This document shows positions 3,691-57,840 of a DNA stretch of 57,889 nucleotides, piece by piece. Numbering within the stretch: position 1 is the first letter of the stretch; each line of letters begins with the position of its first letter. Both the position numbers and the translations under genes were made by a program. The notes beneath the pieces are model-generated. The model was not told the origin of the DNA. It ran no database searches and saw only the letters and a program-made list of their open reading frames with translations. Source of the DNA: a virus (Duplodnaviria > Caudoviricetes); IMG/VR virus record IMGVR_UViG_3300021131_000007, positions 1 through 57,889 of that record. The stretch is one strand, 5' to 3'.

Positions 3691-3727
3691 ACATGATATA
3701 CTAACATACATAGTAGATAGGAAAACT

Positions 3728-5117: not shown

Positions 5118-5176
5118 ATCTTGTTTTTTTTTATAAATATGGTAAAATTAATATATAGTCGAAAGTAGATAACCTA

Positions 5177-5911: not shown

Positions 5912-5912
5912 G

Positions 5913-7506: not shown

Positions 7507-8174
7507 TGCAGTCATCTAATGCTAATATTATAAATGAAAAAAAACAATATATAATGTTTAATCTTATTATGTTACATCCAAATATTTGGTACTGGGAAAA
7601 TGTAATAAGTTCTCCAAAAGAATTAGTTGATTTTATCAATGAAGTGGATTCTGACAAAAGATCTTATGATGCAATATCTTCTTGGAGCCCATGGACCGCA
7701 AGCGATGACAAAAATCTTGTTTATGGATCCGTCAAAACAATTAACAATCAATATAATAAAATTAATACTGGAGACAATAGATTAGATCAAAAAACATTAT
7801 ATATAATAAATAGTTTAAAAATGGCTATTGAAATGTGCTCTGAAAGATATATTTTAGGACACAAATTAGATGTTAATAAATATAATTTAGATCAAAGAAT
7901 GCTTTCTATTAAAAGATGGAATGAGGGACAAAGCATGGGTCCTCATTTTGATGGGCAAGACGGACATTCTGATTTAGGTTTTTCTTTAGTAACTTACCTA
8001 AATGATGACTACGAAGGTGGAGAAATACATTTTAAAGATCATAACATTACAGTTAAACCAAAAGCTGGAAGTTTAATAATGTTCCCATCTCAGATGCCGT
8101 TTGTACATGAAGTATTACCAATAACAAAAGGTACCAGATATATGATGCCAACTTCTGTTTTAACCTTGCCGTAA
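7506..8174 (+). CDS. 2OG-Fe(II) dioxygenase, P4H-like (#5)
   Basis: HFD, YLNDDYEGGEIHF, KPKAGSLIMFPS, HEV, GTRY. Confidence 0.88.
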   Translation: MQSSNANIINEKKQYIMFNLIMLHPNIWYWENVISSPKELVDFINEVDSDKRSYDAISSWSPWTASDDKNLVYGSVKTINNQYNKINTGDNRLDQKTLYIINSLKMAIEMCSERYILGHKLDVNKYNLDQRMLSIKRWNEGQSMGPHFDGQDGHSDLGFSLVTYLNDDYEGGEIHFKDHNITVKPKAGSLIMFPSQMPFVHEVLPITKGTRYMMPTSVLTLP

Positions 8175-8211
8175 TTAATGGTATAATCTATTTAGAATTG
8201 AGGAAAATATT

Positions 8212-9066
8212 ATGTTTTTTGATAGACCAGATTGTATAACTCTTTCTAGCTATATAGATGCTTATGGAACCCCTAGTGGAGTTTTTGTTTTAAAAAACGT
8301 AATTGATCCAGAATTAATTAATAAAATAGAACAAGATCTAAAATTAATAGAAGAAAAATCTTTAAAGAATACAAGTGGATTGATAAACTGGTATGTTGAT
8401 AAAACAGTTGATCCTTTTGTAGATACTATGTACATATGGGAAAAGATGAGTGAAATACTTTCCCCTACACATGTCCTACACCCACAAGCAGGTTTACTGA
8501 AAGTAAAACCAGGTGATGATGGTATGTTTATTCACGCAGACAGCCCAGGTAAAGGACAATGCCATCTTCTTTCACAAAGAGATACATGGTCAACATGTTG
8601 CCTTTTGGATTATGGGGTAGTTACATATTTAGGAGATTGGGAAGGTGGAGAGGTCTTTTATCCAAATATTAATCCAGATGGAACAATAAAAGATCATCTT
8701 AAAGACGGTCCAGAATGCTTAGAATATAAACCTGAAAGAGGAGACATTATTATTCATTCCGCATTTGATCCTTATTCACATGGAGTTAGAGAAGTAACAT
8801 CTGGAATTAGATATGCTTTTTCAAATTTTTCTCTTAAAGCAATTGATAATCCTGGAACATTTTATAATTATGGAACTTCAGAATATTTTGAACAAATAGG
8901 TAAAAACGTACAGGAAAAATCAGTAACTGATGAACAATTAAAAAATTGGCTACAGCCTTTAAAGATAAACCCGCAATTTACCGAAGAAGCAATATTAAAA
9001 ATGCAACAATCTGGACTTGAAGGTGAAGATCTAGCTAAAACATTCTTTGCAGACATGAAAGAATAA
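8212..9066 (+). CDS. 2OG-Fe(II) dioxygenase, P4H-like (#6)
   Basis: HAD, YLGDWEGGEVFYP, HGV, GIRY. Confidence 0.85.
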   Translation: MFFDRPDCITLSSYIDAYGTPSGVFVLKNVIDPELINKIEQDLKLIEEKSLKNTSGLINWYVDKTVDPFVDTMYIWEKMSEILSPTHVLHPQAGLLKVKPGDDGMFIHADSPGKGQCHLLSQRDTWSTCCLLDYGVVTYLGDWEGGEVFYPNINPDGTIKDHLKDGPECLEYKPERGDIIIHSAFDPYSHGVREVTSGIRYAFSNFSLKAIDNPGTFYNYGTSEYFEQIGKNVQEKSVTDEQLKNWLQPLKINPQFTEEAILKMQQSGLEGEDLAKTFFADMKE

Positions 9067-9070
9067 ACAA

Positions 9071-9670
9071 TTGAAATCAATAGAAGAAGTAGCAATTGGC
9101 ATATATAAAATAGATAATTTTATATCAAAAGATGCTTGTGTTTTTTTAAAAAAATATTTAAATCAAGATTTATATGAAAGTCCAAGATATAATATTTATG
9201 GATCTCTTGGGTCGGAATATCCAAAATATTTAGAAATGATAGGTAATTATAAAGAAGACCCTGATTATAATATTGCAATTGATTTGTTTAATTCTATAAT
9301 TTTGTCTTTTAGTAGTCCAGTTTCTTTTATGTTTAAAGAAGATCATATATTAAAACAAACTTACTATAGCGTCATGAAAAATGATAGCGAAAATGAAATT
9401 CATTTAGATAATTATTATTATGACGAATCTGGAGCCCTACAAATAAAAGATGGCTACTCACAAGATAAATCGGCAATGTTATATTTAACCGATGACTACG
9501 AAGGTGGAGAGTTATATTTTCCAAATCAAGATTTTTCAATTAAGCCAAAAGCAGGAACTATGATTTTCTTTGAAGGGGATCACAATAAACCTCATGGAGT
9601 AAAAAAAGTAATTTCTGGGGAAAGATGTAATATAATTACTTTTTTTGAACCTAGGAGTTTAAATGGATAA
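9071..9670 (+). CDS. 2OG-Fe(II) dioxygenase, P4H-like (#7)
   Basis: HLD, YLTDDYEGGELYFP, HGV, GERC; TTG start. Confidence 0.88.
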   Translation: MKSIEEVAIGIYKIDNFISKDACVFLKKYLNQDLYESPRYNIYGSLGSEYPKYLEMIGNYKEDPDYNIAIDLFNSIILSFSSPVSFMFKEDHILKQTYYSVMKNDSENEIHLDNYYYDESGALQIKDGYSQDKSAMLYLTDDYEGGELYFPNQDFSIKPKAGTMIFFEGDHNKPHGVKKVISGERCNIITFFEPRSLNG

Positions 9671-16600: not shown

Positions 16601-17303
16601 AGCAGATATATTAAATATAGAGTCTAAACTAAATGTAAAAATTGACGGGGTAAAAGAATTATCTAGTCCATTAGTACTATCAGAATTAGCCAATGCTATA
16701 TTTACAATAACTGCAAATGCTTTTGTAAAAGCTATGAATATAGAAGCAAAAGGAAATCCTAAAAAATATCATCATATTTATGAATGGAATAAAGTAGGGC
16801 TTTCATCTGGCAGATTATTTTTTTTGTATAAAGAATCTACTAATAATGGTTTATTAGTTATTAAACCTGGTTTTACCAAATCTAAAACCAAGGTTCCAGT
16901 TGCACCAGAGCTTTTAATGCCAGGCAAAACAGGTAAAGTTGTAGCATCTAAATATATTTTTAGAGATAAAGCTTTTATTATGGAATCTGGCAAACCTATT
17001 ATTTATCGTGCATCTAAAAATTTACCTATTCCAGATAATGGCAAAATTAGATTTGTGGCTGCAGGAACTGTAATCAAAAACTATAATCCTGGAGGAAAAC
17101 AAGTAAAAGGATCGTTTGAAAAGTTTTATAGTTTATGGTTCGCAACAAAGGCAGCCTCAATTATTAATGCGTCTGGAATTACCACGGCTATAGATGCTGA
17201 ATTGGCTAAAGTTTTAGAACAGAATAATGCGGGGCCTGCTGAGGTAAGAACTGCTATAATTAATCTATTAAAACAATATTCTAGGGGAGCAGAAGTTATA
17301 TGA
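16569..17303 (+). CDS. neck / tail completion protein (putative)
   Basis: Synteny; basic; HHIYEW motif. Confidence 0.5.
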   Translation: MFKMITIQPSKADILNIESKLNVKIDGVKELSSPLVLSELANAIFTITANAFVKAMNIEAKGNPKKYHHIYEWNKVGLSSGRLFFLYKESTNNGLLVIKPGFTKSKTKVPVAPELLMPGKTGKVVASKYIFRDKAFIMESGKPIIYRASKNLPIPDNGKIRFVAAGTVIKNYNPGGKQVKGSFEKFYSLWFATKAASIINASGITTAIDAELAKVLEQNNAGPAEVRTAIINLLKQYSRGAEVI

Positions 17304-17806
17304 CAGACTATAAATTAACAGCTTCATCTGAAATAAGAAAGTATCTTTGGGATAATATTAAAGATGCAGAAATTCTTGATGAAAATGATTATTATGCTGA
17401 TGGGTTTGCATCTGCCTTAACCCCTATAATTCCAACGCAGCAAGTTCCAGAATTCAATAATCTTCTTCCAGGAAGAACTTATTTAATTTATGATTTTGAA
17501 GTAAAAACAGTGCCAGTACAATGGTGGATGACAGAAGAATCTATGACCATAACTGTTATTTCTCAAAATTATGAAGTAATCAATCAAATTAACAATTTGA
17601 TGCATGATTTATTTAGAAGATATGATCAGAGTGCTTCAGATTTAAATGCCTATCTTGATGGCGATACAGATTTCATATATCATCACATAATGATAGATTC
17701 AATCATGTCCCCCGAGCCATTTAGCACTGAAGGTGACTACCAGATGGCTAGTACGACCTTTACCTACAACTATTCTCGCAAATTAGACGGGAACGGAAGG
17801 TTCTAA
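17300..17806 (+). CDS. tail terminator protein (putative)
   Basis: Acidic 168-aa ORF directly before the major tail gene. Confidence 0.55.
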   Translation: MTDYKLTASSEIRKYLWDNIKDAEILDENDYYADGFASALTPIIPTQQVPEFNNLLPGRTYLIYDFEVKTVPVQWWMTEESMTITVISQNYEVINQINNLMHDLFRRYDQSASDLNAYLDGDTDFIYHHIMIDSIMSPEPFSTEGDYQMASTTFTYNYSRKLDGNGRF

Positions 17807-17836
17807 ATTCGTATTATAGTCCCAATATGTTATTAT
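17807..17836 (+). promoter_or_regulatory. promoter for the major tail gene (TTCGTA-N17-TATTAT, extended -10)
   Basis: ATTCGTATTA-N11-TGTTATTAT, same spacing as the 9986 element. Confidence 0.5.
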
Positions 17837-17893
17837 TGTGTTACGAGGAAGATTTTGTCAAATTTTAAAAACAATAAGGTGGTGAAATAAAAA

Positions 17894-18622
17894 ATGGCAG
17901 CAAATGTAAAAAACGTACTTGTAGGTGCAGCACAAATTTTCGTGTCAACAAAAACCAACTCTGATCGCCCAGTAACCGTTCCAGGTGCTGGTGATCTAGC
18001 ATGGGGAACACAAAAGGCAGCAGGATACCTAGATGCAAGCTCTAAGTGGCGTGATGTTGGTTACACCAACACAGGACTTGAAGTTTCATATGAACCAGGT
18101 TATGGTGAAGTTATGGTTGATCAACTTCTAGATGCAGCACGTTTGTTCAAGCAAACAATTAAGGTAATGCTTAAGACTGAACTAACAGAAGGTACACTAG
18201 AAAATATCAATCTTGTTTTCGGACAATCAGATCCAATTCTTACTTATAGCGGTTCAACAGGAACCAGCGATACAACATTTACAGCAGCATCAGATACAAA
18301 CGCAGCAGCAGTAAATGCTAAGCTAAATCTATCAGGTGGTGCTCTAGGAGATGCTCCAGTAGAGCGTTCTATCGTTGCAGTGGGTAATGCCCCAGCAAAC
18401 CTTGGAACAGAAGCTACTCCAGTAGATGCTTCTACAGTAACAAAGAAAGAGCGTATCTATATCGCACGTCGTGTGGTACAGGTTGAAGTTACATCTCATG
18501 GTTTGAAGCGTGATTCTGCAACTGTATTCCCAGTTCAGTTCCGTTGCTTACCTGATGACAACGATGCTTATGATGGTGCAGAATACGGTGTAATTATTGA
18601 CCGTGTTTACAGCACTCTCTAA
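17894..18622 (+). CDS. major tail (tube) protein
   Basis: NVLVGAAQIF, WRDVGYTNTGLEVSYEP, VDQLLD, TLENINLVFG; strong RBS; followed by a terminator. Confidence 0.85.
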   Translation: MAANVKNVLVGAAQIFVSTKTNSDRPVTVPGAGDLAWGTQKAAGYLDASSKWRDVGYTNTGLEVSYEPGYGEVMVDQLLDAARLFKQTIKVMLKTELTEGTLENINLVFGQSDPILTYSGSTGTSDTTFTAASDTNAAAVNAKLNLSGGALGDAPVERSIVAVGNAPANLGTEATPVDASTVTKKERIYIARRVVQVEVTSHGLKRDSATVFPVQFRCLPDDNDAYDGAEYGVIIDRVYSTL

Positions 18623-24444: not shown

Positions 24445-24917
24445 TGAGTTATAGCATTAATGCAGGTATTAGTTTATCCTTAGATGGAAATACTTGGTAT
24501 ACCCTTACCGATCATAATAGAAAAGAAATAGACGTTACTCCCGCCCTGATTGAGCAAGCTCAAAGAATGGCTAATGGTAAGATGAGAAAATATGTTATTG
24601 CTTCAAAGAAAACAATAACTACTTCTTGGGTTGACATCCCATCAAAAACTACTAGCACAGTTGATCAAGGATATTCATCTGCATGGCTTGAGGCATTTTA
24701 TAATGCTAACGTATTTGTTCCAGTATATGTAAAATTTACACATTCTAGAGAAACAAAACCTACTACAGGATCTGCTCCAGACGATTCAACATTTGCTACA
24801 GCAAGAATAAATTCAGAAATAATTCAATGCTTTATTACTAAATTTACGTTAAAGACTAAACACCGTAATATCAACTTTGACTATGTTGATATGGATATAG
24901 AATTTACGGAGATTTAA
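24444..24917 (+). CDS. distal tail / minor tail protein
   Basis: Directly after the tape measure gene; RMANGKMRKY. Confidence 0.6.
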   Translation: MSYSINAGISLSLDGNTWYTLTDHNRKEIDVTPALIEQAQRMANGKMRKYVIASKKTITTSWVDIPSKTTSTVDQGYSSAWLEAFYNANVFVPVYVKFTHSRETKPTTGSAPDDSTFATARINSEIIQCFITKFTLKTKHRNINFDYVDMDIEFTEI

Positions 24918-27900
24918 TGCTTAACAATGTAGACAGTTCTGTTTTTTTAAATTCAAGTGAAATTAATTTACTTCCAGTTGTTTCTGCAGAATGGAATCAA
25001 AATTTATTTAATCCTCCATATATAACTGTTGCAGGACTTGGGGTAAAAGAAACTGTAACTGCTGGAGCTTCATACACATCAGTAACTGACAGCAATAAGC
25101 ACCCAAACTTTACTACAAATAGCTTTGCACTATCTTCAAATACGGGATCGGTTTCATATTCAGTAACCCCTACATCTACTTCTGCAGCTTATAAAATTGT
25201 ATTTTATGCTAAATCAAGTATCTATACCCCTATAATGCTTAATGCATATGCTAAGGGTACACAGACACAATACGGGTCAACATCAGCTGAAATAAATAGT
25301 TATGGCTGGACTAAAGTAGAAGTTATGATGGGCGGGTCTGGAAATGATGACCCCATATCAAGTATCAATTTTAATATAGTCTGTAATACATTTACTAATT
25401 ATCCAGGAGACGCTACAATTTATTTTACCGTCCCAGAAGTATATGCCAATCAATATTTTAATTATCAATACAATTCTATCTGGCCAACAGATGCTCCATT
25501 TTCTTATTTTAGACCAGGAGAATCATATGTTGGAACTGGAAACTCTAATATATCATTACCTAGTAATTTTAGGCAAGTAACTTCTGGAGCAACAAATGGT
25601 TTTTCTGGAACTTGGTATGCCCCAGTTAGTTCAGTATTGGAAAACCCACAGTATCTATTTGTAACGCAATATAACCCATTTATTAAAAATATTTTACCTA
25701 CAGATATTGCTACTTATAAATATTTTGTATCAGATGCTATTTCAACACCAGCAATTTCTGCACTTTATCCATCAGCAATAAGTACAAATAAATTAGTTTT
25801 AAAATTTAATACTTCAGTGGCTGTACCTAATATTTCTGTTTATCTAAATGGATCTGGCAATACTGCTATATATTCTGGAGCTATCCCATCAAATGGAGTT
25901 TTGATTCTGTATTATAATGGGTCTGGGTGGGGAACAACGCAATGGTCTTTAATGCCTTCCTTTAATTCATCTGGACAACTAAGTCTATATACAACTGTTA
26001 GTGAAATCACAGTAAAGCATAATAGCGATCCAGTACTTAATTCTAACTTCCCTACAAAAGCAGATAATATTCAATATACTGAAGACTATAAAAGAATGCA
26101 CCTTATTGAAGTTTCCCCTAGACTTGAAGTTGATTTAAGTGATTATGTACAAGATATAACTATAACAAAACAATTAGACAGTAAAAGTACTATAGTTCCA
26201 CTATCAACAATTAATACGGACGATGCTGCAATAAACTTGAGCGGTATTCCAATTTTTACTGGAACTGATCCAATACCTTTATTCTCAAATCAGAGTAATT
26301 CAAACTCTTCAATCTTAGCTAATATGCTGAGAAAGAATATAAAGTTTTATGTAAACTGGCATTTGCTTTCGTATACCGATTCTTCAAATACATACAATTC
26401 TTCAGGTTCATATATTCCAGCAGGAGTATTTTATTCAGACAATTGGGAAGAACAAGATATAGATACCATTAAAGTACAATGCTTTGATATTATCAGATAT
26501 CTGCAAACCTTGCCTGTTCCCGATTACGTATCAAATTATAAAACTGTTTTTGATATTATTTCTACTTTATTAGATAGGGCGGGATTTACAGATTACGACA
26601 TAGACTCTCTTTATAAGATAACTAATGATCCATCTTCGCCTATGGACATGTCTTATTTCTTTGTAAATTCTCAAGATACAACTATTGCAGCAGCATTAAC
26701 AGATTTATTTTTAGCTTATCAAATTGGTGCCTATATTGATGAATATGGAGTTATGAAGTTTTTAAGCTTAGCTAATATTTTAAATCCAGCAAGCAGTTCA
26801 GTTTCTTTAACTGATTCTCAAATATATCAAGGCGGTTATTCTGTATCTAATATAGGTAAAGTTGGTAAAATATCTTTAAGATATCAAGAACCTAAAATAA
26901 AACAAACATTAGCATTACAAAATGCCACCGACCCAACTCAAAAGACTTCCCCTTCTTTTATATATACTACATCAACAGCACAGCCTTGGATTAGTCAGAC
27001 TACAGATGCAGTAGGTTTTAACTATTTAAATCAAAATATGGGTGAATCTGATAATAGTTTTGCTTATAATGTAAATGATTTATTAGACATTTTTCATACA
27101 TTTAATTTAAACACAAATGGTTATGCTGTAATAGAAGATGAAATCGTTTCATTTAATTATAAAGAATATACTATTGCATCAGGATCTAATACTAAAACTG
27201 TATCAGTAAAAAGTGATATAGAGTTAGCTTCAGAAGTAGATCGTTTTGTAAAAGGAAATGTAGCTCCACAATTAACTCTTTCTGACGGAGATTCAAATTC
27301 CACAGTATCAAATGTTACTATTACCCCAACTGGAAATATTACAAATGTTCAAAGAGGTTTATTTGGCACTGTTCCTTCCGCTCATAATATTATTACTAGT
27401 CTAACAAGCAAATCCTTATCTCAAGCAACAGCAGCAACGGATTACACAGTAACGGCGGGAGGATCAAATGCTTCAGTATCATTGTTTAAGCCATATACAG
27501 CTGTATCCTCAGATCAGTCTAATCCAGGAATAAATGTAATTAATTGCAGTGTTCCAGCTACTGAAAAACTATTAGTATACCCAACTACTCAAAGAGATGT
27601 AGGATATCATACCTATTCTACAAAATTTAATCTTGCTGATGATAATAAATTATCAGCTGCTGGAATATTTTTTAATGCTACCAGTACAGATTCTTTAGAC
27701 CAAGCATTTTTTGTAGAATTTATAAGAAATTATTTAGGAACAAAAACTACAATAACTGGAACCGATCCAGACACAGGGGCAGACATAACTACAACCACTC
27801 CCACATATCAATATTTAATAGCAATTTATAAATGGAATGAAGGAAATGGCGAAGATGTAATTGCCTGGACTGATATTACTGGCATGACAGGAAATATTGT

Positions 27901-29089
27901 AAATAATTTTGAAAAGGTTTTAGTTAAAAAAACTACATCAGATTCTTATTCTTATGAGCCAGGAACAGATGCTGTTTTTCAATTAAAAGTAGTTAACTAT
28001 GCTTCTGATGGTTCTGATGGAGAAGATGTAGGTCAAGTTATAGATGTATTCTTAAATAACGCCAAGATTGTTGGATGGCAAGTACTAGATCAATCTACAA
28101 ATCAATGGAAACAAACTTCTTCCAATTTAAAAACGGGAGTTCCAAAGCTACCAACCTTAGATCAAGCCCCATCTACTAATAGTGTTTTTGGATCATATAT
28201 GTCAACTCAACCAGTTGTGATACCTATATCTATAAATGGAGAACTAGGTCTTGCATCTATTGTTTATAACGAGGGTAATGCAATTAACTCTACTGTAACA
28301 GTAGGATCTTTTAGAGAACTATATGCAACAGAAGCAATCTTGCAAGATAGAAGCAATAATTATTGGTATCAGACACAACAATTCTTAAATGGAATGATTC
28401 AAAATCAAAATATATTTAATTTGAAGAAAAGCTATATAATGCAAACTCAACCAACGATTACTGGTATAAATGTATATGATGTTCAGTACCAAACCCCAGC
28501 AGCTACAAATGTTGATATTTTGCCAGTACAATATTATCAGTTATATTTTCCGACAGGTGCTCCCGCCGATAATCAATATAGACAAGAAATTGTAGTTGAT
28601 GAATATGCATTAGCCTATTCCACACCATTAAATACAGGTTTTAGAGCAAAGTTTGCTATAGCAAACAATTCTCCTTATTTAGTTTGGATACATAAAGACC
28701 CAGATCAATTAAATACTACTAGTACTCACCTAGTATTATGGACCCATGAAATTGTGGCCCAGTCAGACCCTTCAATTATTGAAAGGGTTTTAAATATAAA
28801 TAACGTTACAGAAGTAGCTCAGGTAGATTCTCCATGGATCCAATCCTCATATGCTGCTAATAAAATGATAGGACTAATTGCTAATGCCATAGAAGGCTTC
28901 TCTAAAGACACCACAATCAAAATTTTTGGTAATCCTTTAATTCAGCTTGGCGACATCATTTCAGTTACATATAAATTGACGGGAATCAACCAAAGACTAT
29001 TTGTAGTACAGTCTGTAAAACATACTTTTAAAAATGGTCTTGAAACAGATTTGGTTATAAATGCTGTGGGTAATGGAACCCAATATTAA
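24917..29089 (+). CDS. large minor tail / hub protein
   Basis: 1390 aa; C-terminal GNPLIQLGDIISV typical of hub/Tal-like proteins. Confidence 0.7.
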   Translation: MLNNVDSSVFLNSSEINLLPVVSAEWNQNLFNPPYITVAGLGVKETVTAGASYTSVTDSNKHPNFTTNSFALSSNTGSVSYSVTPTSTSAAYKIVFYAKSSIYTPIMLNAYAKGTQTQYGSTSAEINSYGWTKVEVMMGGSGNDDPISSINFNIVCNTFTNYPGDATIYFTVPEVYANQYFNYQYNSIWPTDAPFSYFRPGESYVGTGNSNISLPSNFRQVTSGATNGFSGTWYAPVSSVLENPQYLFVTQYNPFIKNILPTDIATYKYFVSDAISTPAISALYPSAISTNKLVLKFNTSVAVPNISVYLNGSGNTAIYSGAIPSNGVLILYYNGSGWGTTQWSLMPSFNSSGQLSLYTTVSEITVKHNSDPVLNSNFPTKADNIQYTEDYKRMHLIEVSPRLEVDLSDYVQDITITKQLDSKSTIVPLSTINTDDAAINLSGIPIFTGTDPIPLFSNQSNSNSSILANMLRKNIKFYVNWHLLSYTDSSNTYNSSGSYIPAGVFYSDNWEEQDIDTIKVQCFDIIRYLQTLPVPDYVSNYKTVFDIISTLLDRAGFTDYDIDSLYKITNDPSSPMDMSYFFVNSQDTTIAAALTDLFLAYQIGAYIDEYGVMKFLSLANILNPASSSVSLTDSQIYQGGYSVSNIGKVGKISLRYQEPKIKQTLALQNATDPTQKTSPSFIYTTSTAQPWISQTTDAVGFNYLNQNMGESDNSFAYNVNDLLDIFHTFNLNTNGYAVIEDEIVSFNYKEYTIASGSNTKTVSVKSDIELASEVDRFVKGNVAPQLTLSDGDSNSTVSNVTITPTGNITNVQRGLFGTVPSAHNIITSLTSKSLSQATAATDYTVTAGGSNASVSLFKPYTAVSSDQSNPGINVINCSVPATEKLLVYPTTQRDVGYHTYSTKFNLADDNKLSAAGIFFNATSTDSLDQAFFVEFIRNYLGTKTTITGTDPDTGADITTTTPTYQYLIAIYKWNEGNGEDVIAWTDITGMTGNIVNNFEKVLVKKTTSDSYSYEPGTDAVFQLKVVNYASDGSDGEDVGQVIDVFLNNAKIVGWQVLDQSTNQWKQTSSNLKTGVPKLPTLDQAPSTNSVFGSYMSTQPVVIPISINGELGLASIVYNEGNAINSTVTVGSFRELYATEAILQDRSNNYWYQTQQFLNGMIQNQNIFNLKKSYIMQTQPTITGINVYDVQYQTPAATNVDILPVQYYQLYFPTGAPADNQYRQEIVVDEYALAYSTPLNTGFRAKFAIANNSPYLVWIHKDPDQLNTTSTHLVLWTHEIVAQSDPSIIERVLNINNVTEVAQVDSPWIQSSYAANKMIGLIANAIEGFSKDTTIKIFGNPLIQLGDIISVTYKLTGINQRLFVVQSVKHTFKNGLETDLVINAVGNGTQY

Positions 29090-32600: not shown

Positions 32601-33013
32601 GTTCTTTAGGTGGAGATAGGTATTATAGTAGTCAGATCTGGGGAATAAAAATTGGTCAAAGTTCTGCAGGAACAAGAATATCAGGTATTCCAATCCAAGG
32701 AGATGCTGATTTAAATAACTGGACAAACGGAGCAACAATTTATCCAGCAAATGGAGAACCTTATTTTCTATCAGATGGAAGTACAGTTCGTTATGGAACT
32801 GGTTCTGTTTCAGTAACCGCTACTGGACATTATAAAAATGCGGGATCTGGAAGTACTGGTTTAGGAGATAAACCAAGACAAAGAATGATTATTGAAGATC
32901 CAGTTACTGGAGAATTGCAATTAGGTATGGCAGTTTATTATAGAAACGCTGGTTCATCTGGAACAGCACCAACCAATTCTGGTTATGTAGGAGATTTGTG
33001 GGTTGATTACTAA
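29669..33013 (+). CDS. tail fibre / tip protein
   Basis: 1114 aa, Ser/Thr/Gly-rich; FSVTPAG, VKGDGSITASNASISG repeats; ends GDLWVDY. Confidence 0.75.
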   Translation: MQDKKIEYQSGATVAQRAPIYIDVNRDPRARNQSYLNLYASRVGAQVVAVDVINGTVIASSNVDILNSATGSGVGGVSNTISASLPIPTPGVPPLPVTNLVATWDDQDNLVLNFTWNPSDPSNQYAYKFVIEVRDSTTNKYYVLNAGYGYTAQSFITPSSSSQTITISYSDLSSVIELISNINQVGVASADYAQTGDYVFADVPALVSHLPQPTISLSKGTDYYVVSVTNLSSALAKSNFYGIIVEENVTTETLKSNVSLTNGWVQASALTTTSPITIYAPDDAHRWVRVKFVGKSGMPSVYSDIADITPDAFIPVNTNPPTQFASASIAWSSNDIVVTFAQPASNAGTTVKVKMVPYINGSESNSLYAFYYHVIVGSETSFNITSGDLYNQFGAYYSTYKAYITSVSNQGIETTDAVIIAGPATRTTSLSTVTPTASVTNTTDGYVVQFDLGSSGANFGEVYQFYISPTFTSIDLPDYMDATYSSSGTNTIVVSSITLENGDYSLPSGHTVNEFIGTGITGNGIQPNTYVTNISGTGPYTLTLSQNIDSINYGTPSGNYHMQSLVYSGKGPANIFSTYYNDMYVTVFYYDNYDNRSQSSNIKTVHPINPAESLITNAVQVGGTAGAIYVGSSASTGARILLGVDSYYNSNNSHSGIFAYDGSATTGSSPTTSIISNASNGGFTFSTINAKIADWTISSDKIQNTLDTVSNYVGMSGTGTYSFWAGSATSGGDSSAKFSVTPAGKVSARDITIYGSGNNSDTLISAGSYFSVKGDGSITASNASISGALTVSQQSYFNADVNISSGSYLNSVGTGTVRIGAQGLLALDTSSAATTKIYSSPITVNGTSGISLWSKRALFGSNESSGWLISDGVIQSDYITMDSSNHYIKIVSQTSNSTNGIQLSAGADSDYAIKAGNLSGTPDFWVKHDGSLKASNATITGTVSSSIVRGGKNSVDDGNSGYYLDASGSAALISYNTSSLGGDRYYSSQIWGIKIGQSSAGTRISGIPIQGDADLNNWTNGATIYPANGEPYFLSDGSTVRYGTGSVSVTATGHYKNAGSGSTGLGDKPRQRMIIEDPVTGELQLGMAVYYRNAGSSGTAPTNSGYVGDLWVDY

Positions 33014-35205
33014 TGGGTTTTTGGGTAAAAAAAGATCAATCAACTTGGGCTCCTGTTAAAAAAGTTTGGGTAAAAACAACATCTGGATCTGGAGCATGGA
33101 CTTCAGCTAAAAAAATATGGGTTAAAGTTATAGGTGGATGGAATTTGTTTTGGCCATCAAATGGGCCATATGCAACAACTCCCCCATCAATAACTCAATA
33201 TACAAATGGTACTGGTAAATATACAAATGAAATAATTTATGGAAGCAATACTTATGGACAAAAAGGTGTATGGGTAGCAAATAGTAGTACATCATCAATT
33301 TCAAGTTATGCTTATAATATTTATACTTCGGATTCCCCTACTCCTGGCGGAACAGAAACATTACAAGAAGGCCCTACAACATTTAGTGGAACCTATCATA
33401 CTATAGATAATACTTTGTATGATGGAAAATATTTAATTTTTGAAGTAGTAGCAACAAGAACAGACGGCACATCAGGAACAGATAGCAGTGATACTGGAAA
33501 TTCTATAAGACCTTTTGTTCATAGAAGTATCCCAGTAATATCCACATATTCTTTAAGTCAAGGTACAGGAGCTTATTTAAATACAATTACTTATACATCT
33601 CAATGGGATTATAGTCAAAGCGATTTGCCAGATTACACTAGGGCAACAGTCGAATTATATAGAAATAGCTCAAGTTCAACTTCTGGCGGGACTCTTGTTG
33701 CAACGGGAACAAGTACAGATAATGGATATACTTATACATCTTCAGTTTCATATGATATGTACACGGATGCAGTTAATAATGATGGTAAATATTTTTATGT
33801 AGTAGAAAAACAATACAATTCTGGAACTGATTTTTCAGGATCTGGTCCAGTAATAAATACTATAAGTCGGGGACCATTTTCAGTAACAATGCCACCTGAT
33901 GCATTTAGCTACAGTATTGCAGATACAACTGCAAGCGTTTATTGGGGAGATCCAGGAGCAACGGTTGCTCAAAGCGGTAATTACGTAGCAGTTAACTGGA
34001 ATGATACTGCATATCCAAGAACTGGTTATTTAGTTTCTGTATCAGGTCCAGTCAATAATGGGCCAGATGATGTGGGAATAACATCTTTCAAGACATATCC
34101 ATTAACTTCCTCTGGATATGAATATGCAACAATAACTGCATACAATTCTAATACTTATTGTACAATTACATGTACTCCAGGAAACAATACATCTAGTTAT
34201 TTATATTCTTATACTCCTGATGGATTTACTCGTGTAACAGCAACCACATCATCTAATACTTATAAATTTTCTGTATCCCCAGGATCAACAGCAACTGTAT
34301 ATTATGTTATGGCTTATTCTGGTGCAAATCAAACAGGACTATCAACGCAAGGAACAGGAGTAGTATCATCAGCTACGCCTACTGCAAAATATGCAAGTAG
34401 TGGTCAAGCAGGTCCTATATATATGCAACAATATGTAGGAGCATCTATATCTTCAGCTTACATAACTCCTTCCAGCGTTACCTTAGATACTCAAAATGGA
34501 AATGGAACTTTTTATTGCATTGTTTCTGCATCTGGATATCCATCTCCATCTATTTATTATAGTTGGCAATTTTTTAGCGGAGGATGGAATGATTTAGGAG
34601 TAACCACATCGTACTTTACACCTTCTTATTCAGGTTATCCTTTTAGATGTGTTGTCACAGCACTTAATGCATACGGCTCTCAAACAGTAGATACTGGATC
34701 AGTAACTGCTTCTTGGAATCCTCCTAGACAGTTAACTGGCCCATCCATATCTGGTAGTGGAGTTGCTGGCACATATATTTCTTTTTCTGGAGGAACTTAT
34801 GCAAATGGTTCATCTTCAAATGATTTAGCAGAAAGTATTAACCCTGCAAGCTTTTCATCGAGTTCACCAAGTGCAGCATCAACTAGTCCTTATAGAGTAA
34901 CAACATCAGATGCATCATCTCCAGCTTGGTATTTTGCATCAAGAGATTCTGTATTTGGAAATAATGGAAGTAATTATACATATTTTTCTGGATCTATCAT
35001 GGCAACTCTTCCTCCACCTACTTTTAATCCAGCACCACCTAATTTTTCACCAGCACCACCTAATTTTCCACCAGCACCACCTAATTTTCCACCAACTCCA
35101 CCTAATTTTCCTCCTACCTTTTTTGGTCCACCAAGATTTGGTACATCTTCTATTAGGTTTAAAGAATCTATAATTAAAATTAATAATATTCATGAGGTAA
35201 TGTGA
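33013..35205 (+). CDS. receptor-binding / fibre protein with C-terminal (PAPPNFx)n repeat and S74 N-terminal stub
   Basis: N-terminal WVK..W repeats; Ig/FN3-like Tyr/Thr/Ser-rich body; ends PPNF repeats then PPRFGTSSIRFKE. Confidence 0.75.
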   Translation: MGFWVKKDQSTWAPVKKVWVKTTSGSGAWTSAKKIWVKVIGGWNLFWPSNGPYATTPPSITQYTNGTGKYTNEIIYGSNTYGQKGVWVANSSTSSISSYAYNIYTSDSPTPGGTETLQEGPTTFSGTYHTIDNTLYDGKYLIFEVVATRTDGTSGTDSSDTGNSIRPFVHRSIPVISTYSLSQGTGAYLNTITYTSQWDYSQSDLPDYTRATVELYRNSSSSTSGGTLVATGTSTDNGYTYTSSVSYDMYTDAVNNDGKYFYVVEKQYNSGTDFSGSGPVINTISRGPFSVTMPPDAFSYSIADTTASVYWGDPGATVAQSGNYVAVNWNDTAYPRTGYLVSVSGPVNNGPDDVGITSFKTYPLTSSGYEYATITAYNSNTYCTITCTPGNNTSSYLYSYTPDGFTRVTATTSSNTYKFSVSPGSTATVYYVMAYSGANQTGLSTQGTGVVSSATPTAKYASSGQAGPIYMQQYVGASISSAYITPSSVTLDTQNGNGTFYCIVSASGYPSPSIYYSWQFFSGGWNDLGVTTSYFTPSYSGYPFRCVVTALNAYGSQTVDTGSVTASWNPPRQLTGPSISGSGVAGTYISFSGGTYANGSSSNDLAESINPASFSSSSPSAASTSPYRVTTSDASSPAWYFASRDSVFGNNGSNYTYFSGSIMATLPPPTFNPAPPNFSPAPPNFPPAPPNFPPTPPNFPPTFFGPPRFGTSSIRFKESIIKINNIHEVM
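35011..35140 (+). repeat. in-frame 21-bp tandem repeat encoding P(A/T)PPNF(S/P)
   Basis: CCAGCACCACCTAATTTT(T/C)CA units, about four copies. Confidence 0.95.
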
Positions 35206-35423
35206 TGAGTTCTGTATTTTTAAGTTTAGAGGAAAAGCTTACAATATTAAATAATCATCTAAGTTGGTTAACTAATGGAGAAGAAAGATTTAATTTAATT
35301 CTTTTAAATTATCCAGAATGGAAAGATTCACAGGAAGTAAAAGACATTTTTGAAGATATTGAAAAAAGAAAAGATTTAATAAATAAAGAAATAGAAAGCG
35401 TAACCCTACAAAATGAAAAATAA
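35202..35423 (+). CDS. small helical protein (possible fibre chaperone)
   Basis: Coupled to the previous gene; LSLEEKLTIL.. helical hairpin. Confidence 0.6.
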   Translation: MMSSVFLSLEEKLTILNNHLSWLTNGEERFNLILLNYPEWKDSQEVKDIFEDIEKRKDLINKEIESVTLQNEK

Positions 35424-41819: not shown

Positions 41820-44800
41820 TTGGTGAATTTCACACATTTACATGTGCACTCGCACTATTCGCTTATGGATGGACTTTGTTCTCCTGAAGAGCTTTTGACT
41901 GCTGCAAAAAATGCGGGACAAACAGCAATGGCTATTACAGATCATGGAACATTATCATCTCATAGAGAAATGCAGGTTGCAGCTAAAAAGCTGGGAATGA
42001 AGCCAATACTCGGTTTAGAAGCATATATATCCGCTACAGATAGATTTGACAAGCGTGATATTAAAAATCGTGATGACAATACTCAGATATTTAATCATAT
42101 AACTTTGCTTGCTAAAAATAATGAAGGTTTAAAGAACCTTCAAAAATTATCTGAGATTGCTTGGACTGAAGGATATTACCGCAAGCCCCGTATTGATTTT
42201 GAAGTTCTTGATGAATATGGAAACGGTCTTATTGTTTTATCTGGATGTATGAATGGACTTATTGCTAAGGCTATTCAGCGTAATGATATGAATAAAGCTT
42301 TTGAATATGCTCGTTGGTTTCAAAATAGATTTAAAGATGATTTTTATCTAGAAGTCCAATCGCATAATGATAAAGAAGTAAATGACGGACAAGCAAAAAT
42401 ATCTGCTGAATTAGGCATTAAGTTGGTTGCTACTGGTGATTGCCATTATGCAACAAAAGATCAAAAGGCTTTGGAAGAAGCTTTGCTTATTTTATCAACT
42501 AAGCCCGATCAAGCAGAAGGCACAAACTATGAATCTGGTAAAAAGTATAAAGATATTTTTGAAAGATTTAATCATTTATATCCAGATCGCCCAATATCAT
42601 TTCAAGATATAAATGTATATATACAACCACTTGAAGAAATTAAAAAAGATTTTGGTTCAGAGTGGACTGAAGATATTTATGATAACTCGTTAGAGATATC
42701 AAATAAGGTTGAAGAGTACGAGTTTCATGAAAACTTAAAGTTACTTCCTAAACCTAAAAAAGATGCACATAATCAATTAATAGAAATGTGTAATGAAACT
42801 TTAAAGGAAAAAGGTTTAGATAATGAAGAGTACAAAGAAAGACTCAAAGAAGAGCTTACTGTCATTAAAGATAAAGACTTCAGTAGTTATTTTCTTGTTG
42901 TTAGCGACATGGTTCGCTGGGCAAAAGATAACGAAATCTTGGTTGGACCAGGAAGAGGATCCGCAGCAGGATCTTTAGTCTGTTATTTGCTAGGAATCAC
43001 AGAGGTTGATCCAATTAAATTTGACCTTTTGTTTTTTAGATTTATTAACCCAGAGCGTAATGATTTTCCAGATATTGATACAGACTTTATGGATCGCCGT
43101 CGTGGAGAAGTAAAAGAATTTTTAAGAAAAAAGTTTAAAAATGTAGCATCAATATCTACCTATCAATATTTTAAAGATAAAGGTGTAGTTAGAGATGCAG
43201 CAAGAGTTTTTGATGTGCCACTTGGAGAAGTAAACAAAGCACTTAAAGGAGTAGAAACATTTGAAGAATTTGAATCTAATAAAAATGTTGATTGGTTTAA
43301 GCAAAAATATCCTGAAGTTCTTAAGTTTGCTTCTGATTTACGTGGTCGCATTCGTTCCGTTGGTATTCACGCTGCAGGTGTCGTTGTTGCTAAAGATGCT
43401 ATCTCAAATTATGCCCCAATTGAAAGTAGAAGCGATTCTAGTGATGACGTTAGTGGTAGAGTTCCTGTTGTTGCTTACGATATGGACCAAGCTGCTGAAA
43501 TAGGATTGATTAAGTTTGATGTACTTGGACTTAAAACTTTATCTGTAATTCAAGACACTATAAAATCTATTAAAGACAGACATAAAATTGATATTGATTT
43601 GCATTCTTTACCGCTTGATGATAAAGCAGTTTTTCAAGATCTATCTAATGGATACACAAAAGGAGTGTTTCAAGCAGAAGCAACTCCTTATACAAATCTT
43701 TTGATTAAGATGGGTGTTGATACGTTTGAAGATATGGTAGCTTCTAATGCTTTAGTTCGTCCAGGTGCTATGAATACAGTAGGAGCAGAATATCTTGCAC
43801 GTAAACGTGGGGATAAAATGGTTCAATATGTTCACCCTGTAATGCAACCTTTCCTAGAAAGAACTTATGGAGTAGTTATATATCAAGAACAGGTTATGCA
43901 AGCTTGCGTTTATTTAGGCGGGATGTCATGGTCTGAAGCTGATAAAGTAAGAAAGATTATTGGTAAAAAGAAAGATGCTAAGGAGTTTGATGTTTTCAAA
44001 GACAAATTCGTTGAAGGTGCCAAGAGGTACATATCTAAAGAAGATGCTGAGCATTTATGGCATGATTTTGAAGCACACGCTGGTTATTCGTTTAATCGTT
44101 CCCACGCTGTGGCTTATTCAATGCTTAGTTATTGGACTGCTTGGCTTAAGCATTACTACACAACTGAATTTGTATTTGCTCTTCTTAAAAATGAAGGCAA
44201 CAAAGATACCAGAACAGAATACCTTTTGGAGGCCAAGCGACTTGGAATTAAGGTTCTCTTACCCCATGTCAACGAATCGGAATTAGATTTTAGCATTCAA
44301 GGAACATCTATTAGATTTGGTTTGTCCAACGTTAAGTATATATCTGAAACAATAGGAAAAAAGATTTTAAATGCTAGACCATTTAAATCTTATGCACATC
44401 TTTTAGAAGTTGCTGGAGAAAAGAAATCTGGAATTAATTCAAGAGCAATTGCTTCATTAAATCTTATTGGTGGAGCAACATTCGATGACAATCCAAGAAC
44501 TGGAAAAGAATCAGAAAACTATTATGAATATTTAAATATACCTAAGTTTGATACTCGTGGCATAACGGCATTTATTAAATCTCAAGTAACACCACTTGAA
44601 GATTTCTTAGAAGAAGGCACTTTTGTAGTGTGTGCAATGGTTAAATCAATTAAAAAGGGCAAAGGCTGGTCTAGAGTAGAATTGGTTGATGATACTGGAT
44701 CTATTGGTATTTTTCATAGTGAAAATACACAAATTGAGACGGGAAATATGTATTTCTTCTTAGTAGGCGACAATAGAATTCATAGATATGTTACAATAGC

Positions 44801-45089
44801 AGAAGTAGTGGAAAAGAAAGATGATCCGTTTATTAATTATCTACATAGTCAAGATCTTCAAATACCTGAAGGTAAAAAGTATATTGTTGACTTTACCCAC
44901 TATCAAACCAAACAAAAGAAAATGATGGCTCACGTCATATATTGTGATGAGCAAAAAGAGATGTATCGTGTAATAGCTTTTCCAAAGATGTACACGACAG
45001 CATTAGGAAAGATGAAAGCTGGATCTTTCTGTTCCCCCGTTATCGGAAAATTAGATGACGGAACAACATTCGTAAAGGAGATAGCATGA
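41820..45089 (+). CDS. dnaE: DNA polymerase III alpha subunit
   Basis: PHP HLHVHSHYSLMDG, TDHG, GPGRGSAAGSL, PDIDTD, HAAGVV, YSFNRSHA. Confidence 0.97.
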   Translation: MVNFTHLHVHSHYSLMDGLCSPEELLTAAKNAGQTAMAITDHGTLSSHREMQVAAKKLGMKPILGLEAYISATDRFDKRDIKNRDDNTQIFNHITLLAKNNEGLKNLQKLSEIAWTEGYYRKPRIDFEVLDEYGNGLIVLSGCMNGLIAKAIQRNDMNKAFEYARWFQNRFKDDFYLEVQSHNDKEVNDGQAKISAELGIKLVATGDCHYATKDQKALEEALLILSTKPDQAEGTNYESGKKYKDIFERFNHLYPDRPISFQDINVYIQPLEEIKKDFGSEWTEDIYDNSLEISNKVEEYEFHENLKLLPKPKKDAHNQLIEMCNETLKEKGLDNEEYKERLKEELTVIKDKDFSSYFLVVSDMVRWAKDNEILVGPGRGSAAGSLVCYLLGITEVDPIKFDLLFFRFINPERNDFPDIDTDFMDRRRGEVKEFLRKKFKNVASISTYQYFKDKGVVRDAARVFDVPLGEVNKALKGVETFEEFESNKNVDWFKQKYPEVLKFASDLRGRIRSVGIHAAGVVVAKDAISNYAPIESRSDSSDDVSGRVPVVAYDMDQAAEIGLIKFDVLGLKTLSVIQDTIKSIKDRHKIDIDLHSLPLDDKAVFQDLSNGYTKGVFQAEATPYTNLLIKMGVDTFEDMVASNALVRPGAMNTVGAEYLARKRGDKMVQYVHPVMQPFLERTYGVVIYQEQVMQACVYLGGMSWSEADKVRKIIGKKKDAKEFDVFKDKFVEGAKRYISKEDAEHLWHDFEAHAGYSFNRSHAVAYSMLSYWTAWLKHYYTTEFVFALLKNEGNKDTRTEYLLEAKRLGIKVLLPHVNESELDFSIQGTSIRFGLSNVKYISETIGKKILNARPFKSYAHLLEVAGEKKSGINSRAIASLNLIGGATFDDNPRTGKESENYYEYLNIPKFDTRGITAFIKSQVTPLEDFLEEGTFVVCAMVKSIKKGKGWSRVELVDDTGSIGIFHSENTQIETGNMYFFLVGDNRIHRYVTIAEVVEKKDDPFINYLHSQDLQIPEGKKYIVDFTHYQTKQKKMMAHVIYCDEQKEMYRVIAFPKMYTTALGKMKAGSFCSPVIGKLDDGTTFVKEIA

Positions 45090-55653: not shown

Positions 55654-57840
55654 TTGACCAGAAAGATTAAATTTATAATAGCAACTCTGTTTACCACAGG
55701 GTTGCTATTTCTTTTCCCGTCCAATAAAGCACATGCTGATGATACGGCGGTAGTTGATACAACTAGCCAACCAGTATTAGACCCATCAGTAAGTATAGAA
55801 AATAACAGCACTATAACAATTAACAGTGTACAAAATAAAATAGATTCAGCCACATCCACACTTCAATCTACAGCCCAAATAGATTCCGCAGCAATAATAA
55901 ATTCTATACAAACAAATGTCCCTAATGCAGACACTCAAACAGCAGTTCAAATAGCAACAACGCAAGATCCAATTTCAACAGCAGTTCAAGATGCTACTTT
56001 AAAAATACAAATAGCAAATCAGGCTATAGATTCTGCCACATCTGCTATTAAAATTGTTAACTCTAATCAATTAGTTGTAGATTCTCAAACAGTAATAGTT
56101 TCTAATATTCAATTGCAAATAGATAGTGCTACCGCAAATGTAGATAGTACTACAACCACATTACAATCAGCACAAAATACATTATCGTCTGCTCCTTTAT
56201 CAACAATTAATGTAACGGCTTCTGGAGTTATTGCAACAGTTTATCGTGCTCAAAATGGAGCATCACCATCGTTAAATAATTTAGGTAATCCCGTAGAAAC
56301 TTTAGTAGTACCATCAATATCGTATAACTGGGGTAGTGGACAAATTCTTAACTCTGGTTTATCTGATCACGTTATAGTTGTTTTTAACGGACAAATAACA
56401 GTACCAAACACTACAGATATTTATTATGCTGTTTATTCAGATGACGGTTCAAAATTGTATATAAATGGACAATTGATTATAAACAACTGGAGAGATCAAG
56501 GTTTAACGTGGAGTCCTTACAGTCAACATTTTACAGTTACCCCAGGACAAACTCAAGATATTACTCTTTACTATTATGAAAATGGTGGCGGAGCGGGAGT
56601 TACAATGGGATGGGGATACAATAATATTTGGACATCTCCTACTTCAGTTAATTATAGCCATGTAACATCTACAACTTCAGCTCCAAATCCAGCTTTAGTT
56701 CAAGCAGTAACAGATGCTCAGAAAGCTTTAAATGATGCTCAAAATAATTTAAATACCACACAACAACAATTGTCTGAAGCAATAAATAATTTAGCAACAG
56801 CACAAAATAATCTTCAAATATCTTTACAAACTGCTAACGCTCTTGCGGATACTGCAACAGTAGCAGTTCAAACAGCAGTAACTGCTATGGATAATTCAGT
56901 GCAAGTTACAAATGATTACTATGCACAAATTGCAGCAGCAAAAGCAGCAACAGATGCCCTTGCTGCACAACAAGCAGCAGATAGACAAGCAGCACTAAAA
57001 GCAGCAGCGGATGCTGCTGCAGCCAAAGCCCAAGCAGATGCATTAGCAGCCCAACAGGCTGCAGATAAAGCAGCAGCAGATAAAGCAGCAGCGGATGCTG
57101 CTGCAGCTAAAGCACAGGCAGATGCCAAAGCAGCACAAGATGCTGCTGATGCTAAAGCCAAACAAGATGCTGCAGATGCTGCAGCAAAAGCTGCACAAGA
57201 CGCTGCAAATGCTAAAGCAGAAGCAGATGCAAAATTAACTGCACAACAAGCAGCAGATCAAGCTGCAAAAGATGCACAAGCAAAAGCAACAGCAGATAAA
57301 GCAGCAGCGGACGCTGCAAAAGCTCAAGCAGATAAAGTTTTGCAAGACGCAATTGGAGTAAAACCAAATAATCCAGATCAACTTTCAGATACAGTAGTTA
57401 AAGAAGCTCCTGCCGAATTACTAGTTCCACATATTCAAGTAGATCTAAAAGGAGTAGAGAATGGTGGCATTCAATTCTTTGGTACTAAGAGTGCACCTCA
57501 AGTTGTTGGAGAAGATGGTAATCTTACACCACCAGCCCCACCTCCAGGATCTGGTTTACCAATACCTGCAGATGCAATCACTACTGCTGATACATTTATC
57601 GGACAACCAGGTGGTGCTAGTTTCAATGCTCCAGATGTTGCTGTCCCTGTTGTTTTAACACCAGTGACTGGTGCACTTGCTGCAGTACCTGGAGTACAAG
57701 CAATTAATCAAACATTTGTTGCAATGGCAAACATTGGAAACGATATGTCACCTGTAACAAGAAAGAAAGCTAAAAAAATCTTAGTAACTACAGTTGTCGT
57801 AGGACAAATAGTAGCACTTAGAAGGAGGTTCGGCAAATGA
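55654..57840 (+). CDS. secreted/membrane-anchored PA14-domain protein with long Ala-rich coiled coil
   Basis: Signal peptide ..AHA; PA14 motifs YNWGSG, SDDGSKLYING, NNWRDQG, YYENGGGA; AAAKAQADA repeats; C-terminal hydrophobic segment followed by RRR. Confidence 0.8.
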   Translation: MTRKIKFIIATLFTTGLLFLFPSNKAHADDTAVVDTTSQPVLDPSVSIENNSTITINSVQNKIDSATSTLQSTAQIDSAAIINSIQTNVPNADTQTAVQIATTQDPISTAVQDATLKIQIANQAIDSATSAIKIVNSNQLVVDSQTVIVSNIQLQIDSATANVDSTTTTLQSAQNTLSSAPLSTINVTASGVIATVYRAQNGASPSLNNLGNPVETLVVPSISYNWGSGQILNSGLSDHVIVVFNGQITVPNTTDIYYAVYSDDGSKLYINGQLIINNWRDQGLTWSPYSQHFTVTPGQTQDITLYYYENGGGAGVTMGWGYNNIWTSPTSVNYSHVTSTTSAPNPALVQAVTDAQKALNDAQNNLNTTQQQLSEAINNLATAQNNLQISLQTANALADTATVAVQTAVTAMDNSVQVTNDYYAQIAAAKAATDALAAQQAADRQAALKAAADAAAAKAQADALAAQQAADKAAADKAAADAAAAKAQADAKAAQDAADAKAKQDAADAAAKAAQDAANAKAEADAKLTAQQAADQAAKDAQAKATADKAAADAAKAQADKVLQDAIGVKPNNPDQLSDTVVKEAPAELLVPHIQVDLKGVENGGIQFFGTKSAPQVVGEDGNLTPPAPPPGSGLPIPADAITTADTFIGQPGGASFNAPDVAVPVVLTPVTGALAAVPGVQAINQTFVAMANIGNDMSPVTRKKAKKILVTTVVVGQIVALRRRFGK

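Follow-up and report, generated by a model that had tools for sequence, protein, structure and literature searches.

A Peptidase_S74 domain apparently divided between a portable cleavage tag on two virion proteins and a separate body gene in a phage record

The Peptidase_S74 (ICA) domain is the textbook intramolecular chaperone, which folds and then cuts its own chain. Self-processing by a domain that is carried on two polypeptides is known from the split inteins, which are active after reassembly. In the building of fibres, the register of the chains can be fixed by a trimerising element that is separate or can be removed, as is the case for gp57A and gp38 of phage T4, Tfa, and the procollagen C-propeptide, and the rod of collagen is Pro-rich and hydroxylated. 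In this paper, we describe an apparently divided S74 domain in the whole IMG/VR virus record IMGVR_UViG_3300021131_000007, a linear record of 57,889 bases (35% G+C, about 54% complete) which is referred to as the window. Two of its virion proteins, an FN3 protein (client A) and a probable tail fibre (client B, or fibre B), end in a short stub with an S74-like tag, and a stand-alone S74 body is encoded behind client A. Split inteins and other Hint modules are similar to this arrangement in their divided self-processing, and an intein-like module fills the position of the S74 tag in relatives of the clients; however, their fold and chemistry are unrelated to those of S74, with Cys/Asn in place of a Ser-Lys dyad. 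The T4 proteins, Tfa, and the procollagen propeptide are functional parallels of the body and, to our knowledge, have no sequence relation to it.

The closest described systems are the ICA domains (PF13884) of the K1F endosialidase, the T5 L-shaped tail fibre, and the GA-1 neck appendage. According to the available excerpts of their descriptions, these domains likewise begin with a Ser-Lys dyad of i/i+5 spacing, the published dyads being S578/K583, S587/K592, and S911/K916, and they also lie C-terminal to a trimeric rod and end in a coiled coil (PMC3742443, PMC8326128). They differ from the present case in that each is a single chain acting on its own polypeptide, whereas here the break appears to fall behind the cleavage strand, with the body encoded by a gene of its own and with at least two different proteins that carry nothing of the domain but this strand. 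The ICA domain of MyRF has the element order a1-b1-a2-b2-a3-b3-b4-a4 in the excerpt available (PMC8326128), and this order agrees with the model of the window body; MyRF, however, is a single-chain eukaryotic transcription factor bound to membranes, and the body model has no significant structural match. In polinton-like viruses, S74 genes are reported to be "fused or adjacent" to fibre genes, and the accessible part of that account describes no break inside the domain, no orphan cleavage strands, and no set of several clients (PMC12220804). The repeat rods of the window are paralleled by pond glycofibrils, which, in the accessible part of a preprint, consist of short peptide repeats that are glycosylated and followed by a C-terminal ICA domain and are thus also ICA-folded rods (10.1101/2025.09.30.679562). 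The literature searched, which did not extend to subscription journals, contained no account of an S74 domain that is split or acts in trans. By the sequence test and by its dyad, the domain of the window is a known one, but its defining intramolecular arrangement is apparently broken.

The tag has the motif Ser-Ser-x-Arg-x-Lys, and both stubs of the window possess Ser1 and Lys6 at the i/i+5 spacing. Because this is the spacing of the published dyads, the tag can be read as an S74 cleavage strand, and the cut in fibre B is predicted to fall before Ser1 (35146). The tag is thus, as judged from its sequence, the N-terminal cleavage strand of a Peptidase_S74 domain whose remainder is absent from fibre B. 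The body behind client A, which starts 10 nucleotides (nt) past the client-A stop in the +1 frame, passes PF13884 with 24.7 and 26.4 bits (cut-off 22) at profile positions 15-51 of 58, and its PHROG matches are to tail-fibre families, at their extreme C-termini. Fibre B itself (33013-35205) matched no Pfam or PHROG family; its stub corresponds to no more than about the first 14 positions of the PF13884 profile, which explains the lack of a match to it. A fused natural relative, P0144 (340 residues), combines an aromatic repeat, the same Ser-Ser...Lys strand as in the stubs, and a body-like C-terminus in a single chain. Its residues 256-340 start 11-14 residues past the first Ser and are 52% identical to the window body (E 9e-23). 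This fusion implies that stub and body belong together as one domain. The 17 more distant relatives (L117-L133) are all fused as well, with a Ser...Lys motif upstream, and several are in giant-virus bins. Outside the clade, the closest fused S74 domains (L117, L124, L126, L127, L128, and L130) end long, repetitive, fibre-like open reading frames (ORFs) on giant-virus-bin contigs. A whole domain in one chain, as usual for S74, was found neither in the window nor in 22 of 22 relatives, in all of which stub and body are separate ORFs. An AlphaFold2 model of the body (pLDDT 74.7) begins with a helix, continues with four strands interspersed with short helices, and ends in a long C-terminal helix.

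The relatives were retrieved from viral contigs with a profile of four bodies, which yielded 40 loci. Among the 23 closest, the open frames measure 64-123 codons; 22 of these loci, representing 17 distinct sequences, could be assessed, as one was cut by the end of its contig. At each of the 22 loci, a stand-alone body of 95-123 codons follows an ORF with FN3 and Pro/Phe repeat that ends in a stub, and the distance from the stop of this ORF to the start of the body is 5-27 nt. Relative to the stub ORF, the body is in frame 0 at 13 loci, in frame +1 at 7, and in frame +2 at 2. These stubs extend 16-20 residues from the first Ser, and all of them, as read by eye from the stub tails, contain Ser1, Ser2, Arg or Lys at position 4, and Lys6. 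The bodies of the relatives reach 25.9-37.1 bits against PF13884, and the protein database holds 14 further body-related proteins of 56-98 residues, all with a precomputed PF13884 assignment. The bodies P0130 and P0131 show 87-90% identity, and P0010 and P0141 lie on long contigs of 107.9 and 113.8 kb, respectively. The split is therefore a conserved feature and no assembly error. An earlier reading, made from the sequence alone, had pointed out that ORF 1578-2420 and ORF 33013-35205 stop at nearly the same point, and indeed they end at 11 and 13 residues after the Lys, respectively; its argument that such truncation is not accidental decay is strengthened by the same split in all 22 relatives and by the stubs without a body described below.

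When stubs of the commonest type were counted in viral contigs with a degenerate pattern, 23 loci were obtained, in line with a search for stubs and stand-alone bodies that the sequence-only reading had suggested. A body is present within about 500 nt downstream at 13 of these loci and absent at 10. All 10 body-less stubs are situated on an FN3 paralogue of 362-372 residues, in 3 distinct sequences (6, 3, and 1 loci), and retain Ser1, Ser2, Arg4, and Lys6. Both types can occur together: a 33.6-kb relative (G005) has a stub gene at 17573-18385 with a body at 17278-17553 and an orphan stub gene at 24761-25861, with a single body match, and a 13.3-kb contig (L159 and L160) has one stub with an adjacent body and one orphan stub. 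Three contigs of 17-22% completeness (L048, L064, and L065) have one stub each and, at this completeness, do not bear on the presence of second clients. In the window, two profiles match only once, at 2428-2706, and no second S74 body was found in this 57.9-kb, about 54% complete record. The body-less stub seen in one genome is thus a property of a phage clade, although the second client of the window, a much larger tail protein, differs from the FN3 paralogue of the relatives. The proposal of a portable tag is upheld with respect to conservation and portability (22/22 split loci, 10/23 orphan stubs), whereas its other part, a signal for modifying enzymes, is unsupported.

The gene behind fibre B is also not a body. 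As had been stated from the letters alone, ORF 35205-35423 is not S74-like: its hhalign probability against the S74-body profile is 0.3%, and no S74 match was found in Pfam or PHROG. Against the Hint profile, the probability is 0.09%, and in the ESM Atlas only small unnamed viral helical proteins were retrieved, with scores below 0.9. The one-base overlap between the fibre-B stop and the ATG of this ORF (35200-35207) suggests translational coupling of the two genes.

At the DNA level, the two tags of the window are more similar than their peptide demands. The reported match between 35128-35166 and 2349-2387 was reproduced at 37 of 39 bases with 13 identical residues, and the two differences, in a Ser codon (TCA/TCT) and an Arg codon (AGA/AGG), are synonymous, as had been stated. 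The tag pattern occurs at these 2 places only in the window, and 2 matches were obtained in 0 of 100 dinucleotide shuffles. Under the codon usage of the window, identical peptides would be expected to share 6.4 of 13 codons; the probability of at least 11 shared codons is 0.007, and that of at most 2 base differences is 0.004. Since this identity exceeds the constraint of the peptide, recent common DNA ancestry by copy or conversion is indicated, and the 39-nt block is a recent DNA copy, beyond convergence on one peptide. Selection on the tag cannot be demonstrated from just two synonymous changes. Beyond either edge of the block, similarity between the two loci ceases, and the repeats upstream of the two tags differ, as also noted before, with periods of 21 and 18 nt. 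The exact degenerate tag pattern had 0 matches in viral contigs and 0 in metagenome contigs; a looser pattern gave 12 loci in metagenome contigs, all of which were rejected as chance matches in short or unrelated frames.

The S74 stub is one of several endings found on proteins of this kind. Homologues of client A are numerous (1000 at E <= 0.001 among 8000 candidates). Of 80 loci that encode relatives of this FN3 protein in viral contigs, 7 running off their contig and 20 duplicates were removed, leaving 53 distinct proteins, which end in long modules (28), Cys-rich tails (10), within 25 residues of the repeat (7), S74 stubs (3), or otherwise (5). The 28 long modules, of about 150-200 residues, comprise 25 flagged by script and 3 with the same ending that were added by eye. 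They start with Cys and often end in His-Asn, in the manner of intein-like Hint domains. Pfam Intein_splicing matched 6 of 10 tested proteins, in every case below the cut-off, and a profile of four Hint-like modules matched inteins and a bacterial intein-like domain in the PDB (E 8.7e-9 to 2.8e-5). The Hint-like modules (L006-L085; P0005, P0009, P0022, P0124, and P0125) are C-terminal and not inserted, so they would be expected to cleave rather than splice. Such a module (Cys ... His-Asn, about 150 residues after the repeat) is absent from both window proteins and present in relatives only. For fibre B, six relatives were found in 5.8 billion clustered proteins. Two of these, P0124 and P0125, carry a Pro- or aromatic-rich repeat followed by a Hint-like module, and the module of P0125 resembles, by eye, that of P0005, a relative of the FN3 protein. 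Both virion proteins are therefore interpreted as carriers of "repeat plus self-removing module" cassettes, with the S74 stub type on both in the window. Some relatives without a module stop a few residues past the predicted cut position; like the interchangeable endings, this speaks for the mechanism proposed below. The Cys-rich tails (at least 4 Cys in the last 30 residues) belong to L033, L036, L037, L046, L047, L050, L056, L058, L061, and L083, and one relative of the FN3 protein (L028, 2501-3346) has a Tyr/Asn/Phe-rich repeat instead of the Pro/Phe repeat. A pattern search for close fibre-B relatives in viral contigs gave 17 matches, none of which was confirmed.

The enzyme genes behind the body appear to go with the repeat and not with the tag. 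Of 8 genes tested that come next to a repeat protein in relatives, on its downstream side, 4 encode a 2OG-Fe(II) oxygenase, and the repeat proteins concerned end in a Hint module (L007 and L009), nothing (L023), or a Cys-rich tail (L050). As these oxygenases stand beside tagless repeat proteins, the enzymes would accompany the repeat, and the idea that the tag is a signal for modifying enzymes lost its support. Given the enzyme cluster at 2773-9670, hydroxylation and glycosylation of the Pro-rich repeats in the virion proteins are probable. In one relative (L030, 3838-4545), a sulfotransferase-family gene (PF03567, 23.4 bits) follows the repeat protein in place of an oxygenase.

A mechanism for the divided domain can be proposed from the architecture of known ICA domains. 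In the MyRF ICA crystal, the "cable" that holds the cleavage site threads a four-strand "donut" of the neighbouring subunit (PMC8326128, available excerpt), and in ICA domains the C-terminal helices form a trimerising coiled coil and cleavage requires the trimer (excerpts of PMC8326128 and PMC3742443). Since the contact of cable and donut is already one between chains, a break after the cable separates pieces that meet across chains anyway, and it gives the cable a free end that could thread the donut. The body, which would consist of helix a1, a donut of four strands, collar helices, and a coiled coil at its C-terminus, would trimerise via this coiled coil, and each donut would grip the free C-terminal cable of one client chain. 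The three client tails would thereby be put in register, and trimerisation of the Pro-rich repeats would be nucleated. The reconstituted Ser-Lys site would then cut just before Ser1, freeing the body with the stub peptide and leaving mature clients that end at the residue preceding Ser1. One body would serve both client A and client B. The grounds for this model are the homology of stub and body to one domain, the conserved split, and the recurrent body-less stubs, from which binding in trans, trimerisation, cleavage, and sharing are inferred. We give a probability of roughly 55% to the reading in which a trimer of the body holds the tags in trans, brings the Pro-rich rods into alignment, and cleaves ahead of the first Ser. 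A wider view is put forward tentatively, as a possibility in which we have less than even confidence: the body may be a diffusible trimeric "cutter" for a C-terminal tag, about 20 residues long, that is shared by several virion proteins unrelated to each other. It would set the register of their hydroxylated and glycosylated rods and then detach by completing a Ser-Lys site located on the client, a task for which intein-like modules acting in cis would substitute in sister phages. On this view, the C-terminus of the rod would be a slot for interchangeable, self-removing assembly modules, of which the split form would be a portable tag for trimerisation and release.

Several points weigh against the proposed action of the body in trans. 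Binding, trimerisation, and cleavage are deduced steps. The stubs of 17 and 19 residues are 6-8 residues longer than the cable of P0144 and overlap the start of helix a1. If the stub peptide stayed in the donut, which might be the case, the body would be single-use, and a supply of body would then be required that the one gene coupled to client A may not provide. Structural comparison gave no ICA relationship for the body: a Foldseek search of the PDB with the monomer model found nothing at E <= 0.001, a wide VIA-align run with the same model had a best Z of 3.8 and listed no ICA entry, and the body profile had 0 matches to PDB sequences at E <= 0.01. In both fold searches, the monomer model is a poor representation of an intertwined trimer. 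As the record covers only about 54% of the genome and the two-stub contigs are fragments of 13-34 kb, a second body may exist elsewhere. The most complete relative (G004, 89 kb, 82% complete) has one stub and one body, and its second repeat protein is stubless, so that use by several clients is not universal. That second Pro/Phe-repeat protein (353 residues; L138; 62901-63962, minus strand) ends a few residues past the predicted cut position of its paralogue. Additionally, no close orthologue of fibre B was found in the 5.8 billion clustered proteins, the best being 41% identical and bearing a different module, and the 39-nt identity, taken alone, suits a recombination scar as well as selection. 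A six-chain prediction (three copies of fibre-B residues 681-730 and three bodies, 18-row alignment) obtained a score of 0.13 against a mark of 0.32 and weighs neither way.

Other explanations must be considered beside it. The split might be real and the body unshared, with a body gene of its own for fibre B that lies outside the sequenced portion of the genome or at a great distance. The incompleteness of the record, the fragmentary state of every two-stub contig, and the position of a body directly after the stub gene at 22/22 loci, which suggests pairing, speak for one body per client. This is nevertheless considered unlikely, since two profiles find a single body in the 57.9-kb record, one body is present for two stubs in the 33.6 kb of G005, 0 of 10 orphan-stub loci have a body within about 500 nt downstream, and fibre B appears to be translationally coupled to an ORF that is not S74. 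Alternatively, the split could be only apparent if read-through or a frameshift joined stub and body of the client-A locus into a cis domain. At 13 of 22 loci the body is in the frame of the stub, with one stop and 6-27 nt between them, and the window has a direct repeat of 10 nt (2403-2412 and 2434-2443, 31 nt apart) at which removal of 31 nt would restore the frame. However, the varied frames (+1 or +2 at 9 of 22 loci) and spacers argue against one conserved frameshift or read-through signal, the relatives have no comparable similarity of stub end and body start, and recoding leaves fibre B and the 10 orphan stubs, with no body downstream, unexplained. A translational bypass or frameshift at 2403-2443 was therefore discarded as a general mechanism, and recoding as a whole is judged very improbable. 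The 10-nt repeat, whose copies lie about the junction where the stub ORF stops and the body ORF starts, may be due to chance in AT-rich DNA.

A recombination scar would account differently for fibre B, whose tag would have been copied along with a C-terminal cassette boundary from the FN3 gene and have no function. The codon identity above the need of the peptide (P = 0.007), which points to a recent DNA copy, the sharp stop of similarity at both block edges, and the swapping of C-terminal modules among relatives are all compatible with such an event. A scar, though, would decay or end randomly, and four distinct orphan stubs (fibre B and 3 others) retain Ser1, Ser2, Arg4, and Lys6 within a similar end window, which counts against it; both base differences in the window are also synonymous, although two are too few for significance. 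A mere scar is accordingly thought improbable. It has also been considered that the tag acts independently of the S74 body, either as a docking or capping strand in the virion or as a recognition signal for the oxygenases or glycosyltransferase. Both tagged proteins have Pro-rich repeats, the enzyme cluster follows the body gene, and the stub tail is an alternating hydrophobic strand, as this would predict; yet oxygenase genes also follow repeat proteins ending in Hint modules, Cys-rich tails, or nothing (4/8), and mere docking leaves the strict retention of the catalytic Ser and Lys unexplained. We consequently place little weight on a body-independent tag, and gripping and cutting of the tags by the S74 body in trans is preferred.

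If the domain is indeed split in nature and its catalytic strand serves as a transferable tag on several proteins, the contact of cable and donut would suffice for recognition, and the split would explain how a solution to fibre assembly can pass from one fibre to another in phages when a stretch of about 40 bases is copied. A small encoded tag together with the chaperone could then be used to trimerise and subsequently release engineered fibres or other proteins, akin to the use of split inteins. Moreover, the exchange of S74, Hint, and Cys-rich endings on Pro/Phe-rich rods beside oxygenases and a glycosyltransferase suggests that uncultured phages known from metagenomes possess a class of modified virion fibres not yet described.

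The features of the window are collected in Table 1. Fibre B is the last of three large distal tail proteins, and replication genes come next.

Table 1. Coordinates of the features discussed, in positions of the window.
Feature	Position	Strand	Remarks
Tail-fibre-like ORF	2-1555		5' end open
Client A, 280-residue FN3 protein	1578-2420	+	Pro/Phe repeat; C-terminal 17-residue stub (2367-2417)
Pro/Phe repeat, client A	2241-2354	+	18-nt period, 6.3 copies
39-nt tag block, client-A partner copy	2349-2387	+	
Stand-alone S74/ICA body, 97 residues	2431-2724	+	Without the Ser-Lys strand
Enzyme cluster	2773-9670	+	GlcNAc-type glycosyltransferase (PF11397), six 2OG-Fe(II) oxygenase paralogues, DUF6065 protein, one unassigned ORF
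Portal, prohead protease, and capsid genes	After enzyme cluster, before tape-measure gene		
Tape-measure protein, 1697 residues	19351-24444		PF10145
Minor tail protein	24917-29089		phrog_10359
Client B (fibre B), 730 residues	33013-35205	+	Distal end of tail module, probable fibre; from ORF and gene position
Pro-rich tandem repeat, fibre B	35014-35111	+	21-nt (7-residue) period, 4.7 copies
39-nt tag block, fibre-B copy	35128-35166	+	Encodes 13-residue tag spanning the predicted cleavage site
Orphan S74 stub, fibre B	35146-35202	+	19 residues from Ser1 to end; Ser1, Arg4, Lys6
Small helical ORF, 72 residues from ATG	35205-35423	+	ATG shares one base with fibre-B stop

No close relative of the record was found among deposited phage genomes, as blastn of the phage GenBank collection returned unrelated short matches only. 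Elsewhere in the window, 41820-45089 encodes a full-length DNA polymerase III alpha subunit with PHP, NTPase, finger, and HhH domains, and 55654-57840 encodes a protein of 728 residues that carries a PA14 domain.

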